NCBI GenBank assembly: GCA_045535455.1
Contig: JAZSLQ010000089.1
Coordinates: 1-59,250, forward strand
DNA from: Kiritimatiellia bacterium
GTDB lineage: Bacteria > Verrucomicrobiota > Kiritimatiellia > RFP12 > UBA1067
Direction: 5' to 3'
DNA length: 59,250 nt
A program made the translations under genes and the position numbers. The notes beneath the pieces are model-generated. The model was not told the DNA's origin. It did no database searches and was given only the letters and a program-made list of their open reading frames with translations. Shown in pieces: positions 39,193 through 46,085 of the stretch; the stretch's first letter is position 1; the number at the start of each line of letters is the position of its first letter.

Positions 39193-40164
39193 CTACTTTT
39201 TCAAACGTCGCCGTCGCTTAGTCATCTTTTCCCGCTTTCTGCCGTCTCTTAGATGTCTTGCGACTCCTTCTGCCTCTCCCTTTTTGAGAACCCTATGCGG
39301 AAAATTCTTAAGCCGCCTCGGCTCGTCGAGCAGCACTGTCTCCGGTGAGAGCATGTGCTCGAGCTTCTTGAACACGCGGTCGAAGACTGGCCCTTCGCCT
39401 GAAAGTATCTCCTCCACGACCGCGTGCCGCGGCGTCCCGTCGAGAAGGGCGGCGGTGGGAGTAGGGTCCTTCGTGCCAGTCGCCTGCCGGAGGCGTATCG
39501 CCATCGCCTTGTAGCGCATGAGCGTCTTGTACTTGGGCGAGAGCTCCGGCAGGTTCTCCTTGAGCCATCCGCGGATCCCGCCGTTGCGCCCGACGACGTC
39601 GCCTGACTCGTCGAACCTCAGGCAGTTGTCGACATAGCATTCGAGATCGTGCAGCATCCCGCCGAGGCGTACCATCGCCTCGCGCGAGTCCTTTCGCCCG
39701 TTCCACGCGGCGAGAAGGGCGGCAGGGGTGGGCATCGGCGCGGTCGTGGTGCGGCGCGAGAGCTTGCGCCTGGCGGCTGCGAGCTCGCGGCGGCGGGCCT
39801 TCTCGCGGGCGTAGTAGAAGGGCCTGCGGACTATCCGCAGGTCGCGCATGAGCTCGCGTTTCATGCGGTCGCGTTCCCTCGGGCTTGCGAGCTTCTTAAC
39901 CTCGTCGCGCATGAGGACCCCGATGTCCATCGCGATGCAGACGCCGAGGAGAAGGGGGTTGAAGGTCGAGTCGAAGTACGTGCTGGCGTTCCGCCGCTCG
40001 AACCAGGCGTCGCCGTAAGACTCTCCCTCGGCGACCTCCCTCGTGCGCGGGCGGTAGGTGTGGATGTCGAGGTATTTGCCGGTGTAGGTCTTCGCCTCGC
40101 TGTATGTCCAGCCGTAGTGGTAGGCGTACCAGTACGCCGAATGCTCGTATGTCTTGCGGGTCAT
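39193..40164 (-). CDS. Hypothetical protein (323 aa), the only minus-strand gene
   Basis: Long GC-rich ORF with its own extended -10 (attatacca at 40204-40212, i.e. TGGTATAAT on the minus strand); no recognised catalytic motif. Confidence 0.7.
   Translation of the reverse strand: MTRKTYEHSAYWYAYHYGWTYSEAKTYTGKYLDIHTYRPRTREVAEGESYGDAWFERRNASTYFDSTFNPLLLGVCIAMDIGVLMRDEVKKLASPRERDRMKRELMRDLRIVRRPFYYAREKARRRELAAARRKLSRRTTTAPMPTPAALLAAWNGRKDSREAMVRLGGMLHDLECYVDNCLRFDESGDVVGRNGGIRGWLKENLPELSPKYKTLMRYKAMAIRLRQATGTKDPTPTAALLDGTPRHAVVEEILSGEGPVFDRVFKKLEHMLSPETVLLDEPRRLKNFPHRVLKKGEAEGVARHLRDGRKREKMTKRRRRLKK
39285..39312 (+). repeat. Copy of the ~28-bp motif inside the 3' end of the minus-strand gene
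   Basis: tgagaaccctatgcggaaaattcttaag. Confidence 0.65.
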
Positions 40165-40217
40165 AATATAGTGCTTTTGCCTCTTTTCCAGTCGGCAGGA
40201 AGTATTATACCATAAAA

Positions 40218-40245
40218 TGAGAATTCTATGCGGAAAAATCTTGAG
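40218..40245 (+). repeat. Copy of the ~28-bp motif
   Basis: tgagaattctatgcggaaaaatcttgag. Confidence 0.7.
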
Positions 40246-40387
40246 GGTGTGTATTCTTACTTGTGCTACAGTCTGCTGATGCGGTGGTCTGCATTTTTAG
40301 GCGGTTTGCGGGTGGGGAGATTTGGTATAATATCTCGCATAAAATTTAGTTGGGGTGTAAAAACATTGAAATGTGAGAGCGAGAATA

Positions 40388-41617
40388 ATGAATGAGTCTA
40401 ACAAAATGTCAGTTGGCGAAAAATCATCTGCCGAAAAGTCTTCTGCCGAAAAGACATTGGCAGGAAGAATGGTGAAAGGTGCAATATTTAGCGGGGCGAC
40501 GTTTGATTCGCGCAAGGTGAAGCCAGGCATTCTATTTGTCGCGCTCAAAGGCGACAAGGCGGATGGTCACGACTACATTCCGCAGGCGTTTGAGAAGGGC
40601 GCGGCGGGAATCATCGACGGTTATGACGAACTCGACCGCGTGGCGAGGGAATACCGCCGTTCCCTCAAGGCCAAGGTTGTTGCCATCACCGGCTCGGCCG
40701 GCAAGACTACCACAAAAGAACTCGTAAAGACGTTCCTCTCGACCGTCGGCAAGGTCCACGCGACTGATGGGAACTTCAACAACCACATCGGGCTTCCAAT
40801 CACCATCCTCAACTGTCCGAAAGACGCCGACTTCCTCGTTCTCGAGATGGGCACGAACCACCCCGGCGAAATAGCCCACCTCTGCGACATCGCAGAGCCC
40901 GACTGCTCGCTCATTACAAATGTCGGCACCGCGCACATAGAGTTCTTCGGCGACCAGGACGGAATCGCGCGCGAGAAGGGCGTCGTCCTTGAACGCGTAA
41001 AGGAATTCGGCGTCGTCTCCAAGGAGAACGTGCGCCTCGATATCCTGCGCGAAATGTGCCACGGCGAGTTCATTGAGGTAGATCCCCGCCAGGAATGGCT
41101 TGCGAAGGCCCTCGAAGGAGTTCTCCCAGGCGGCCACAACCTCTCAAACGCCTGCCTCGCGTTCGCGCTCGCCGAGCGCTTCGGCGCCACGCGCGAAGGC
41201 TGCGCGGCTGCGCTCGCCGGCTTCTCTCTCCCCGGCGCTCGGTGGCGCATTTCGGAGAAGTGGGGCGTGACTTTCATCGACGACTCCTACAACGCAAATC
41301 CCGATTCGATGATCGCCGCGCTCGATACGCTCGTGAAGACTCCCTGCGACGGTAAGCGCGTCGCAGTCCTTGGCGACATGTTTGAGCTTGGTCCCCGCTC
41401 GCTCGAACTCCACAAAAAAGTCTTCGACCATGCGATGTCGCTGAAAATCCCGCTTGTGATCGGAGTCGGCGAGATGTCGTCGCAGTGTCTCTGCCATCTC
41501 GTTTACAAGGAGCTAAAGACACTAAAGAAGAGGTTTCGCGTCGATGTCTCTGCCGGCGATCTCGTGCTCCTAAAGGGATCGCATGGCATGCGCCTCAGCG
41601 AGCTTATCGAGGACTGA
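40388..41617 (+). CDS. murF: UDP-MurNAc-tripeptide:D-Ala-D-Ala ligase
   Basis: 'FDSRKV', 'LFVALKG..DGHDY', 'AITGSAGKTTTKE', 'NFNNHIG.P', 'DDSYNANPDS' and 'LKGSHG'. Start uncertain (40373/40388/40469); TGGTATAAT at 40323-40331. Confidence 0.93.
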   Translation: MNESNKMSVGEKSSAEKSSAEKTLAGRMVKGAIFSGATFDSRKVKPGILFVALKGDKADGHDYIPQAFEKGAAGIIDGYDELDRVAREYRRSLKAKVVAITGSAGKTTTKELVKTFLSTVGKVHATDGNFNNHIGLPITILNCPKDADFLVLEMGTNHPGEIAHLCDIAEPDCSLITNVGTAHIEFFGDQDGIAREKGVVLERVKEFGVVSKENVRLDILREMCHGEFIEVDPRQEWLAKALEGVLPGGHNLSNACLAFALAERFGATREGCAAALAGFSLPGARWRISEKWGVTFIDDSYNANPDSMIAALDTLVKTPCDGKRVAVLGDMFELGPRSLELHKKVFDHAMSLKIPLVIGVGEMSSQCLCHLVYKELKTLKKRFRVDVSAGDLVLLKGSHGMRLSELIED

Positions 41618-41627
41618 GGTTTAATCA

Positions 41628-42314
41628 GTGGGCGGCAAGATATTCTTCGTGTCCGGCATCGACACCGGAATCGGCAAGACAATGGCGACTGGGCTTATGG
41701 CTCGTTCGCTCGCCGCGTCCGGTCGCGATGTCATAACCGTCAAGCTCGTCCAGACGGGCAACGACAGCTTTTCCGAGGACGTCGACGCTCATCGCACAAT
41801 CTGCGGCGGCATTCGCTTCCCAGAAGACGACGAAGGGCTGACGGCTCCTCAGATCTTCAAGTTTCCGTCTTCACCGCTTCTCGCCGCCGCACTCGAAGGT
41901 CGCACAGTCGATGTCGAGGCGATATCGCGCGCCGTCCGGGAATGTGCCGCACGTCATGAAATAGTTCTCGTCGAATCCGCAGGCGGGCTCGATGTGCCGC
42001 TCGCCGACGACTTGCTTTCAATAGATCTTGCCGCTCGCGAAGGATGGCCACTTGTGCTCGTCTCGTGCGGACGGCTCGGCTCAATCAACCATACGCTTCT
42101 TTCTCTCGAAGCGGCGAAGGCGCGCGGCATGTCGGTCGCCGGCGTTGTGTGGAACTGGTGTGAGGGCGCAGATTCGCGAATAGACGATGACTCCTGCGAG
42201 ACAACGCGCAGCTACCTTTCGCGCTGGGGATTCTCGCCTGCTGTCGTGCGCGTTCCTCGCTTTGACATCGGTGGTCCATACCCAGAAGTCGACTTTTCGG
42301 AGATTTTCAAATGA
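41628..42314 (+). CDS. bioD: Dethiobiotin synthetase
   Basis: 'FVSGIDTGIGKT', 'LVESAGG' and 'LGSINHT' motifs. Confidence 0.93.
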   Translation: MGGKIFFVSGIDTGIGKTMATGLMARSLAASGRDVITVKLVQTGNDSFSEDVDAHRTICGGIRFPEDDEGLTAPQIFKFPSSPLLAAALEGRTVDVEAISRAVRECAARHEIVLVESAGGLDVPLADDLLSIDLAAREGWPLVLVSCGRLGSINHTLLSLEAAKARGMSVAGVVWNWCEGADSRIDDDSCETTRSYLSRWGFSPAVVRVPRFDIGGPYPEVDFSEIFK

Positions 42315-43615
42315 CGCCGCTCGAATACGATCGCGCGAGGATCTGGCATCCCTACGCCTCGCTTAAAGACCCTCCGCCAGTCATTCACGCAAAAGCGGCG
42401 TCCGGCGTGGAGATAGAGACTGCCGATGGCCAAAAGCTCGTCGACGCCGTCTCGAGCTGGTGGTGCGTCGCGCATGGCCACAATCATCCTGCAATCGTCG
42501 AGGCGATACGTCGTCAGTCGGAGAAGATGTGCCATGTTATGTTCGGCGGCTTCACCCACGACCCTGCCGTCGAACTTGCAGAGAAGCTTGCAGCGATTGC
42601 TCCGCCCGGTCTCGATCGCGTGTTTTTCGCAGACTCGGGTTCCATTTCTGTCGAAGTCGCCGCGAAGATGTCCGTTCAGTACCAGAACGCGCTTGGGCAC
42701 CCAGAGCGCAACCGACTTCTTGCGCTGAAGGGCGGCTATCACGGCGACACTTCGCTCGCGATGGCGCTCTCCGATCCCGACGGAATGCACACGCTCTTCA
42801 AGGGGATAATGACGAAGCACTTCTTCGCGGAGAAGCCGTCCATCCCGACATGGGGCGAGTGGAATGACGCGGACGCTGACTCTCTTCGCCGCGTGGTAGA
42901 TGAACATGGCGGCGAAATCGCCGCGATCATCTGCGAGCCGGTCTTCCAGGCGGCGAATGCGATGAACTTCTACCACCCTGACTACCTGCGCGAGATGCGC
43001 CGCCTCTGCGACGAGAGCGGGATGTTGCTTGTCTTCGACGAGATTGCGGCTGGGTTTTACAGGACTGGTCCTCTGTGGGCTCATTCGCGCGCAAACATTG
43101 TGCCTGACATCATGACCGTCGGCAAGGCGCTGACTGGCGGACACATGACGCTTGCGGCGACGCTTGCGAGCGGGAAAGTCGCTGACACGATTTCAAACGG
43201 CCGTCCGTCGGCGTTCATGCACGGGCCCACCTATATGGCCAATCCGCTTGCTTGCGCTGCGGCCTGCGCGTCGCTCGATCTTTTCACGAAGGCGGACTAC
43301 GCGGCAAATGTGACGCGGATCGAGCGCCAGTTCCGCGAAGGGCTGGAGACGTTGCGCGGACGACCGAACGTCCGAGACGTGCGCGTTCTCGGCGCGGCAG
43401 GCGTAGTGGAAGTGGAGCGGCTTCCCGTGCAGGCGGAAATCTCTCGCGTCATCCGCGAACATGGCGTGTGGCTCCGTCCGTTTGCGAACTTCATATACTC
43501 TATGCCGCCTCTCGTCTCGGACGAGGCGACGGTAGAGCGCATTGTCGGCGCACTTGTGGGCCTTGCTTCCGCGCCGCCCGGCCCGCCGCCTGAGGATGGT
43601 GATTTCCATGAGTGA
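42311..43615 (+). CDS. bioA: Adenosylmethionine-8-amino-7-oxononanoate aminotransferase
   Basis: 'IWHPY', 'DAVSSWW', 'DSGSISVEVAAKM', 'FDEIAAGF', PLP lysine in 'VGKALTGG' and 'HGPTYMANP'. Confidence 0.95.
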   Translation: MTPLEYDRARIWHPYASLKDPPPVIHAKAASGVEIETADGQKLVDAVSSWWCVAHGHNHPAIVEAIRRQSEKMCHVMFGGFTHDPAVELAEKLAAIAPPGLDRVFFADSGSISVEVAAKMSVQYQNALGHPERNRLLALKGGYHGDTSLAMALSDPDGMHTLFKGIMTKHFFAEKPSIPTWGEWNDADADSLRRVVDEHGGEIAAIICEPVFQAANAMNFYHPDYLREMRRLCDESGMLLVFDEIAAGFYRTGPLWAHSRANIVPDIMTVGKALTGGHMTLAATLASGKVADTISNGRPSAFMHGPTYMANPLACAAACASLDLFTKADYAANVTRIERQFREGLETLRGRPNVRDVRVLGAAGVVEVERLPVQAEISRVIREHGVWLRPFANFIYSMPPLVSDEATVERIVGALVGLASAPPGPPPEDGDFHE

Positions 43616-45542
43616 GACGTATTCCGTAAAGATGCGCGCGTCGAGCGACGGGCATCATGTTTCCGGCGCGGAGAAGATCGTTTCCGTTGCATCGGTCTCG
43701 AAAGTTGCGTCACGGCTTGTCGAACGCGCATTGTCGCACGAGCGCGGCACGCCTGATTTCATCAACGTCAAGATTGAGTCGCTTCCAGCTGACATTCTTC
43801 GTCTCAAGGCGCTTCCCGTCAAGACGCATGTCGTCGCAACGCCCACTGAGGGCCGCGCTCTTGCCGCGCGGCTCTTGGCCGAAGCGGGAATTGTCAATGC
43901 CGATGAGATCATGGCGCGGTTTTCCGAGACGCATTCGCTTCGTGGCGCGATGCTGCTCGATGCCGACACACTCGAACGGCTTGAGCCAGACCAGTCGCGC
44001 GGCGTACGCGCGACATACATGGACGATGCCGCGTCGCTTGCAAAGGGAACGGCGGGCGTAAAGAACCACTACGCCGAGGCGATCGTCCTTGCGACAAAGG
44101 TTCAGAATGCGCCTAACATAATCGCCGAAATCTGCGTGTCGGACGATCCTGACTATGTGACTGGCTATGTCGCGACGCGTGAACTCGGCTATAGGCGAAT
44201 CACAGTTCTCAAAGAAAAGGGCGATCCAAACGGCGGACGCATCTTCCTCTATCGCGGCCCGCGCGACGGAGTCGCAAAGACGATTGAGTTTCTTGAAAAG
44301 ACCCCTGCCCTCGTCGATGACGTGCCGACGCTTTCGTCCGCGGCAGATGCGCCGCGCCGATTCGATGGTCTTGCGGATGCGCTCGACGCACGTCAGGCGG
44401 CCGGGCTTTCGCGCCGGTGTCGTACATTGGAGGGGCCGACAGGACCGACGGCTGTTGTCGACGGCCGCGAGCTCGTCGTATTTGCGTCGAACGACTATCT
44501 TGATCTCGCGCGCGACCCCCGCGTCATAAAGGCGGCGGCAGATGCCGCAAAGGAGTTTGGCGCAGGGTCGGGCGGTGCTCGTCTTACGACTGGCACGCAG
44601 CCCCCGCATGTGCGACTTGAAAACGCGCTTGCCAAGTTCAAGGGAACAGAGGCCGCGCTCCTTTACGGAACCGGCTACATGGCGAACGTGGGTGCGATCT
44701 CCGCGCTCGTCGGGGAGGGCGACGCAGTCCTCTCCGACGAATTGAACCACGCTTCTATCATAGACGGATGCCGACTTTCTGGTGCAGATGTGCTCGTCTA
44801 TCGTCACGGCGACATGGAGGACTTGGACCGAAAGCTTGGCGCCTGCCGCGAACATCGTCGTCGGCTCGCCGTCTCGGACGGCGTATTCTCGATGGACGGC
44901 GACGTTCTCGATTTGCCGCGCTTTTTGGAGGTGACGCGTCGCCACGATGCGTTCTCCATGGTGGACGAGGCGCATGCGACTGGCGTTGTTGGTCGCACGG
45001 GGCGCGGGCTTGCGGAGCATTTTGGCTGCGACCTTCCTGATGTCCTTATGGGAACGCTCTCCAAGGCACTTGGGTCGGAGGGCGGTTTCGTCTGCGGCTC
45101 ACGGCTTCTTGTGGAGTATCTTCGCAACATGTCGCGGCCCTTCATCTTCTCGACTGCGCCGGGTGCGCCCGCGATGGCGGCTGCGCTTGCCGCGCTCGAG
45201 GTTCTTGTGTCCGAGCCAGAGCGCGTGGCGAGGCTGCGTGAGAATGTCGCTTTCTTTGTCTCGGAACTCGTGCGCCACGGCATCTCCGTCCGTGGCGAGA
45301 CGGCCATCGTTCCTATTGTAGTAGGCGACGAGGAAAGGGCGCTTGCGGCGAGCGCGGCGCTTGAGGAACACGGCTTTCTCGTGCCTGCGATACGCTATCC
45401 TACGGTCGCCCGCGGCATGGCGCGTCTTCGCGTCGCCCTCATGAGCGTCCACACGCCCGAACAGCTCCGCGCCGCCGCCGCTTCTTTTGCCGATTGCCCG
45501 TCCTGCTTCGTGCGCGACAATATCGGCAAGCATTTCAATTGA
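43608..45542 (+). CDS. bioWF: Fused pimeloyl-CoA synthetase (BioW) / 8-amino-7-oxononanoate synthase (BioF)
   Basis: BioW N-half: 'YSVKMRAS', 'HVSGAE', 'ALSHERGTPDFI', 'SDDPDYVTGYVA' and 'GGRI'. BioF C-half: 'FASNDYL', 'DELNHASIIDG', 'DEAHATG' and 'GTLSKALG'. Single frame with no internal stop. Confidence 0.9.
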   Translation: MSETYSVKMRASSDGHHVSGAEKIVSVASVSKVASRLVERALSHERGTPDFINVKIESLPADILRLKALPVKTHVVATPTEGRALAARLLAEAGIVNADEIMARFSETHSLRGAMLLDADTLERLEPDQSRGVRATYMDDAASLAKGTAGVKNHYAEAIVLATKVQNAPNIIAEICVSDDPDYVTGYVATRELGYRRITVLKEKGDPNGGRIFLYRGPRDGVAKTIEFLEKTPALVDDVPTLSSAADAPRRFDGLADALDARQAAGLSRRCRTLEGPTGPTAVVDGRELVVFASNDYLDLARDPRVIKAAADAAKEFGAGSGGARLTTGTQPPHVRLENALAKFKGTEAALLYGTGYMANVGAISALVGEGDAVLSDELNHASIIDGCRLSGADVLVYRHGDMEDLDRKLGACREHRRRLAVSDGVFSMDGDVLDLPRFLEVTRRHDAFSMVDEAHATGVVGRTGRGLAEHFGCDLPDVLMGTLSKALGSEGGFVCGSRLLVEYLRNMSRPFIFSTAPGAPAMAAALAALEVLVSEPERVARLRENVAFFVSELVRHGISVRGETAIVPIVVGDEERALAASAALEEHGFLVPAIRYPTVARGMARLRVALMSVHTPEQLRAAAASFADCPSCFVRDNIGKHFN

Positions 45543-45638
45543 TTCTTATCGAGGGGCCGAATTGCTGCTGACGCTTCTGATATGATATAATATAGGCCAA
45601 AGTTGCCAAAATTGCTTATGGTCGCAGGAGAAATCGAC

Positions 45639-46085
45639 ATGGAATTCAACCAACTTCTCGCTGACTTTGCGAAACGCCACAACGTGGAGAACCTTGTAGC
45701 CGTTGACGGGGCCGCCGCGCTCGACATAGACGGAATCATCGTCACCATCGTCGCCAAGGGGGATCTGCTGAACTTCTCCACCGAGATCGGCGAGCCACCA
45801 GTCGATGGCGCGGCCGCTTTTGCTAATCTTCTGCTTGAGGCGAACACGCAGCCCGACGCGTTTTTCGCCAAGATCCCCGGCTCGGGTCCGTATGTCATCG
45901 TGCGGCGGATTCCGCTCTCCCAAGTTGACGACGATGTCTTTGACACCGCGTTGGAGGCGTTCGTCAACAATGCCGAGACCTGGCGCCGTCTCCTTGTCGA
46001 TTTCCGTCCGGCTGCAAAGGCCGCCGCCGAAAGCGCCGCTGCCGAAAGCCAGGCCCTGGGGTCCTACGGCTTCATGGCTGTATGA
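45639..46085 (+). CDS. CesT/Tir-like (T3SS-type) chaperone-family protein
   Basis: 148 aa, acidic; 'LLEAN' and a terminal amphipathic helix 'ALEAFVNNAETWRRLL'; AGGAG RBS; TGATATAAT at 45583-45591. Confidence 0.7.
   Translation: MEFNQLLADFAKRHNVENLVAVDGAAALDIDGIIVTIVAKGDLLNFSTEIGEPPVDGAAAFANLLLEANTQPDAFFAKIPGSGPYVIVRRIPLSQVDDDVFDTALEAFVNNAETWRRLLVDFRPAAKAAAESAAAESQALGSYGFMAV

Follow-up and report, generated by a model that had tools for sequence, protein, structure and literature searches.

The genes considered here lie in a 59,250-nucleotide (nt) stretch of DNA from a Kiritimatiellia bacterium (assembly GCA_045535455.1, contig JAZSLQ010000089.1), referred to below as the window, which makes up contig C14 of a genome of 3.43 Mb in 277 contigs, with a completeness of 84.7%. 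On its forward strand murF, bioD, bioA and bioWF follow each other in a tight string (Table 1). The last of these, bioWF, is a single open reading frame (ORF) in which a pimeloyl-coenzyme A (CoA) synthetase domain, BioW, is followed by an 8-amino-7-oxononanoate synthase (AONS) domain, BioF. It very probably encodes a bifunctional enzyme that would convert pimelate into 8-amino-7-oxononanoate (KAPA, or AON) and feed the synthesis of biotin by the products of bioA, bioD and bioB.

The frame contains zero internal stops, and both halves of its product are recognized by profile searches. Pfam family BioW (PF03744) matches residues 5-236 with 268 bits over its whole profile (1-239/239), and Aminotran_1_2, the class I/II aminotransferase fold, matches residues 288-626 with 204 bits. 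The product passes the NCBIfam BioW models NF002360 (264.2 bits, cut-off 226) and TIGR01204 (196.7 bits, cut-off 193.55) as well as the bioF equivalog TIGR00858 (437.9 bits, cut-off 426.45), and scores below the cut-offs of the models for Kbl (glycine C-acetyltransferase), SPT (serine palmitoyltransferase) and ALAS (ALA synthase). In an alignment of 27 fused proteins, the columns between the two domains differ in length and sequence. These results bear out an earlier, sequence-only reading of the window, which had described one 644-residue frame with a full BioW domain, a short linker and a full BioF domain, and had named a stop between the domains as one sign that would speak against it. None is present, and two contigs assembled from sequencing runs cross the junction with 0 gaps: one of 3.7 kb from DNA run X1 (43460-45600) and one of 764 nt from run X3, which belongs to a different study (44244-45007). 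X1 may be the source sample, which leaves X3 as the independent one. The AlphaFold2 model of the product, built on 27 fused homologues, reaches a mean predicted local distance difference test (pLDDT) score of 90.6, and inside the chain confidence drops only in a BioW loop (141-150) and in the linker (241-250; pLDDT 58).

The BioW half aligns with the solved BioW proteins of Bacillus subtilis (5FLG, E 2.7e-45) and Aquifex aeolicus (5TV5, E 7.4e-37), and in the alignment to both structures Y183, Y195 and R197 fall on Y199, Y211 and R213 of the B. subtilis enzyme, the triad that holds the distal carboxylate of pimelate (PMC9544090). Among the 27 fused homologues Y183 and Y195 do not vary, and at least 90% of the proteins also have R197. 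BLASTP aligns the BioF half to E. coli K-12 BioF at 37% identity (E 9e-61), with K486, H381, S428, D453, H456 and R608 aligned to K236, H133, S179, D204, H207 and R361; all six columns are invariant in the 27 homologues. E. coli H133, S179, D204, H207 and R361 have catalytic roles in the AONS literature, and K486/K236 is the lysine that binds pyridoxal 5'-phosphate (PLP). K236 is described as the PLP lysine of E. coli BioF in PMC9544090. In Foldseek searches the BioF half superposes on solved AONS/KBL structures with target-normalised template modelling (TM) scores of 0.91-0.94. With the whole model as query, the top 50 matches listed were all BioF-type structures; the BioW fold rests on the sequence matches to 5FLG and 5TV5. 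From their conserved residues, both halves look active.

In the proposed reaction, the BioW domain would adenylate free pimelate and pass it to CoA, and the PLP-dependent BioF domain would condense the resulting pimeloyl-CoA with L-alanine to give KAPA, which the products of the co-oriented, overlapping bioA and bioD and of an unlinked bioB would carry to biotin. The fusion would keep the two active sites together, so that pimeloyl-CoA could go directly from one to the other; such a hand-over is the accepted rationale for the fusion, and we infer it here, together with activity and pimelate specificity. Contigs from bovine and sheep gut RNA libraries cover parts of bioA, of the BioW domain and of the BioF domain, with small shares (0.05-0.12) and as records that carry neither expression level nor strand. 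Several points weigh against this picture. The TIGR00858 score exceeds its cut-off by only 11 bits; inter-domain substrate hand-over is modelled, not demonstrated, in the literature (PMC9544090); the RNA-library contigs cannot prove transcription, DNA carry-over being possible; and in a genome of this completeness the absences of bioC, bioY and P450 genes reported below are provisional.

An apt name for the gene would be bioWF, bifunctional 6-carboxyhexanoate-CoA ligase / 8-amino-7-oxononanoate synthase, and the genome should count as capable of biotin synthesis from pimelate. Public records name bioWF relatives after one half only. Beyond annotation the importance of the gene is small, as it is a known enzyme type in the usual form of its clade.

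Table 1. Coordinates of the features at the bioWF locus (positions in the window)
Feature	Position	Strand	Remarks
intergenic region upstream of murF	40165..40372	.	AT-rich; likely promoter region of the murF-bio string (inferred)
murF	40373..41617	+	TIGR01143, 354.6 bits (cut-off 288.6); start may be in-frame ATG 40388
bioD	41628..42314	+	228 aa, GTG start; TIGR00347, 146.9 bits (cut-off 83.3)
bioA	42311..43615	+	434 aa; TIGR00508, 516 bits (cut-off 405)
bioWF	43608..45542	+	644-aa ORF, stop codon included in coordinates; fused pimeloyl-CoA synthetase and 8-amino-7-oxononanoate synthase
BioW domain	43608..44318	+	residues 1-237
interdomain linker	44319..44366	+	~15 residues (about 238-253); length and sequence vary among homologues
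BioF (AONS) domain	44367..45539	+	disordered tail, residues 636-644

Pathway completeness and the source of pimelate

The sequence-only reading had described the operon as lacking bioB and had proposed to look for this gene elsewhere in the genome. It holds for gene order only: the operon contains neither bioB nor bioC, but a bioB of 344.5 bits (cut-off 225) lies on contig C101 (2852-3760) and has both the radical-SAM and the BATS domain. Because bioB is present there, the pathway from pimelate to biotin is, as judged from its genes, complete in the genome (bioWF, bioA, bioD and bioB). The C101 gene stands apart from the other bio genes and adjoins a LysE-type exporter. The biotin ligase gene birA, on contig C190, encodes a short type of 271 aa with the ligase domain only and no helix-turn-helix (HTH). 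A second BioF-like gene (G000:C36:14447-15565, corresponding to L036:3448-4566), 39% identical, was considered as a spare BioF and rejected, since it scores 633.7 bits against the Kbl model (cut-off 460); this leaves the BioF domain of BioWF as the one AONS detected.

Upstream of pimelate, the genome yielded no match over the cut-off to BioC (TIGR02072), no match to P450/BioI (PF00067) and no BioY. BioC passes its cut-off in 3 of 61 genomes of the Genome Taxonomy Database (GTDB) family, all belonging to one genus that is not that of the window, and four more genomes of the family carry full-length hits below the threshold; no full-length BioC-type hit was found in five searched genomes of the window's own genus. 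Both entry routes, BioC and BioWF, thus exist in the family, and the window's genus uses BioWF.

The free pimelate on which BioWF would act could be scavenged, as the sequence-only reading had suggested. In that case the cell would make none and depend on pimelate released by other microbes of the rumen, which BioWF would bring into the pathway. The missing BioC and P450/BioI matches, in this genome and for BioC throughout the genus sample, fit such a dependence, as does a habitat within a dense gut community. The presence of BioW does not imply it, however, because B. subtilis obtains free pimelate from its own fatty-acid synthesis; this pimelate needs BioW, the key enzyme, and BioI is dispensable (PMC7645780). 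That organism makes its pimelate by still unidentified enzymes (PMC7645780), so that missing known genes prove little; the absences come moreover from an 85%-complete genome, and BioZ- and BioE-type routes were not searched. Nor does gene context favour uptake. All-against-all clustering of the flanking ORFs, carried out on 13 related loci and then on 80 loci encoding the nearest BioW relatives in species-representative genomes, revealed no transporter or fatty-acid enzyme recurring beside bioWF, and returned only bioA, bioD, bioB and antisense shadow ORFs, plus a HAD (haloacid dehalogenase) hydrolase in 4 loci. Dependence on scavenging is accordingly a doubtful account. Since the genome showed no known pimelate-forming gene and bioWF has no recurring transporter neighbour, the pimelate may come from endogenous synthesis or from cross-feeding.

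It can be suggested, tentatively, that rumen Kiritimatiellia with BioWF and without BioC or P450 make free pimelate by an undescribed oxygen-independent route. If so, this large and uniformly BioWF-dependent anaerobic clade could be a good place to find pimelate genes by comparative genomics. The source of pimelate in BioW-dependent anaerobes, a gap shared with B. subtilis, is a general question that is not specific to this locus.

Known counterparts and substrate specificity

The fusion architecture is not new: descriptions and experimental tests of it from other bacteria have been published (PMC9544090). The best studied counterpart, CaBioWF of Corynebacterium amycolatum SK46, was purified and turns pimelate into AON via pimeloyl-CoA, with a tunnel of ~5 nm modelled between its active sites (Richardson et al. 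2022; PMC9544090). The window protein resembles it in domain order (N-terminal BioW, C-terminal BioF), in its disordered linker and in the PLP lysine of the BioF half, and its predicted function is the same, the two steps from pimelate to AON in one polypeptide. According to the account given in PMC9544090 of the work of Manandhar and Cronan (2018), which is also cited in PMC7645780, an E. coli bioF mutant supplied with pimelate was complemented by the BioWF of Desulfosporosinus orientis. It is likewise a natural fusion from an anaerobe, belonging in this case to the Bacillota, and its complementation, as that account presents it, is the type of test that the sequence-only reading had proposed for the window gene. 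A later paper refers to BioW-BioF fusion as known (PMC12915131).

Compared with the stand-alone BioW enzymes of B. subtilis (5FLG/5FLL) and A. aeolicus (5TV5), the window protein keeps the triad and carries BioW and BioF in one chain; compared with stand-alone E. coli BioF (1BS0/1DJE), it keeps the catalytic residues in a fused BioF. In B. subtilis, bioW and bioF are separate genes in the order bioWAFDBI.

CaBioWF also raises the prospect of an enzyme of wider use, a broad-specificity aminoketone synthase that would take a wide range of mono- and di-acids along with several amino acids and serve roles beyond biotin. CaBioWF itself is promiscuous (PMC9544090), and the promiscuous ThAOS of Thermus ranks among the best matches to the BioF half in both structure and sequence. 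The promiscuity of CaBioW is, however, attributed to Phe192 in the triad, and the change of this Phe to Tyr restores pimelate specificity (PMC9544090). The window protein has Tyr at this position, and its gene sits within an operon with bioD and bioA, which makes a broad substrate range improbable. Set against the published description of CaBioWF, the Tyr/Tyr/Arg triad of the window protein, where CaBioWF has Phe at one position, predicts a BioW of the strict pimelate-specific type found in B. subtilis and Aquifex and not the Phe variant.

The biotin operon and its neighbours

The genes of the string are closely packed, with a gap of 10 nt between murF and bioD, an overlap of 4 nt between bioD and bioA and an overlap of 8 nt between bioA and bioWF, where the bioWF ATG, preceded by GGATGG, overlaps the bioA stop (43613-43615). 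A scan of the operon for promoters and terminators on the + strand gave nothing convincing, and neither did a search of the same strand for a sigma-70 match in the intergenic region upstream of murF. One 409-nt contig from a bovine RNA library (X15, 41300-41708) runs from murF across its stop into bioD. Given this bridge, the 10-nt gap and the lack of a detected terminator, murF probably shares a transcript with the bio genes in this lineage.

Directly after the bioWF stop, at 45580-45640, the box TGATATGATATAAT is followed by ATG 45640, which opens a CesT-like gene. Since this gene seems to carry its own promoter, the bio unit would end at 45542.

Gene order in relatives places murF outside the unit. 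Among the 13 loci from related genomes, bioD-bioA-bioWF occurs in 5, bioA-bioWF in 1 and bioWF alone in 6, and murF in none. Of the 80 loci, only L045, L049, L050 and L070 have murF before bioD; their BioW identity is 91-97%, and murF is missing there from every other locus with enough flanking sequence. The bioD-bioA-bioWF unit is also found in other classes of the phylum (L041-L043), and bioB lies directly beside it, right after bioWF or right before bioD, in 11 of the 80 loci (among them L053, L054, L057, L063, L066, L080, L116, L117 and L120). The conserved unit across the phylum is bioD-bioA-bioWF, with or without bioB. In a close relative, L048, a bioD match starts at base 2 and bioA at 1704 (positions 1-1704), with ~1 kb between them in place of the 4-nt overlap of the window, possibly an insertion.

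We also placed the loci in a quick maximum-likelihood tree (IQ-TREE) of 72 fused proteins, which has long branches and whose midpoint root serves for drawing only. The clade of the window comprises eight rows with a support of 100 in the Shimodaira-Hasegawa-like approximate likelihood ratio test (SH-aLRT) and holds three of the murF-linked loci, L050 not being in the tree, together with L047, which has neither murF nor bioD upstream, and L092, where bioWF stands alone. Because it is present only in this closest subclade, the adjacency of murF looks like a recent, lineage-specific juxtaposition.

The sequence-only reading had seen in this arrangement an operon coupled to a peptidoglycan gene. 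The tight murF-bioD-bioA-bioWF string itself is confirmed, but the linkage is confined to the four loci named above. A physiological ground for regulating murF together with the bio genes as a single unit would agree with the short murF-bioD gap without an obvious terminator, with the X15 contig, with the same order in four close relatives and with the finding that this murF is the sole MurF-class match in the genome. Such functional coupling is nevertheless highly improbable: the linkage is missing from all more distant loci with sufficient flank, it is broken even among close relatives (bioA-bioWF without murF or bioD in L047, from genome G003, and bioWF alone in L092), the phylum-wide unit excludes murF, and the gene directly upstream of murF, present in several copies and probably mobile, fits a local rearrangement. 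This last gene is a 323-aa ORF on the opposite strand (39193-40164) with no Pfam or NCBIfam match, and paralogs of 45-92% identity lie on five other contigs (C210, C100, C129, C226 and C207).

Distribution and origin of the fusion

The closest relatives of the window are rumen and gut Kiritimatiellia metagenome-assembled genomes (MAGs) from cattle, goat, sheep and yak. The fusion is in frame in 76 of the 80 related loci, 75 of them without a stop and the other being L047, which was flagged only since the alignment overran its shorter C-terminus and which is counted as fused. Of the remaining four, three are cut by contig ends and one is truly unfused. In this last genome, G090, a member of the same family, bioW and bioF are separate genes in different frames, joined by the stop/start overlap ATGA (L039 = G090:C43, 3483-5053; also L111). 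Their domains are 62-64% identical to those of the window and stand in the same order, and the pair is a natural unfused counterpart of bioWF, one base change away from fusion. An artefactual fusion in the window, adjacent bioW and bioF genes of the G090 kind having been merged by a sequencing or assembly indel, has next to no probability in view of the gap-free junction contigs of two studies, the same fusion across the related loci and the continuous, high-confidence AlphaFold2 model.

Other departures from the standard form were noted. An apparent split in G040 was discarded, the gene being broken across two contig ends. In L040 (G348:C69, 2212-4142, - strand) the BioW and BioF halves lie side by side but not in one frame, and the BioF part has no obvious ATG; the gene is either truly split or frameshifted by an error in the MAG. 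Candidate triple fusions in L026 and L031, with upstream open frames of ~900-980 aa, were likewise rejected, as the extensions have no Pfam match and are taken to be open GC-rich frame.

Wider searches found the same architecture well beyond the closest relatives. A search of 1.84 billion representatives gave ~20 clusters at 50% identity that have the fused length and match both domains, and among 401 genomes sampled evenly across the phylum, 14 besides that of the window had a full-length match. These 14 fall in at least four families and more than one class, and four of them have one stop in the matched span. In the tree, 66 rows of the PVC (Planctomycetes-Verrucomicrobia-Chlamydiae) type form one clade (SH-aLRT support 100). 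The fusion is an inherited, standard form in rumen and gut Kiritimatiellia and not a peculiarity of this genome; a modest gain of the survey is to show it as their normal state, and the unfused G090 pair illustrates how easily it forms or breaks.

A second clade, also with a support of 100, gathers rows labelled Victivallales, Selenomonadaceae, Desulfovibrionaceae and Clostridiaceae strain 1XD21-72. Their fused bioWF genes have 56-60% BioW identity (L118, L124, L115, L123, L121 and L120), and all come from MAGs except that of strain 1XD21-72, which is an isolate. The presence of similar fused genes in bins with these labels and in an isolate is a further modest gain of the survey, and a separate, well-supported clade points to the spread of the fused gene among gut anaerobes. 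Four other rows, titled Blautia faecis (L080), Limosilactobacillus gorillae (L088), Clostridium sp. CAG:138 (L090) and Clostridiales bacterium (L053), are nested in the Kiritimatiellia clade and are probably mislabelled bins.

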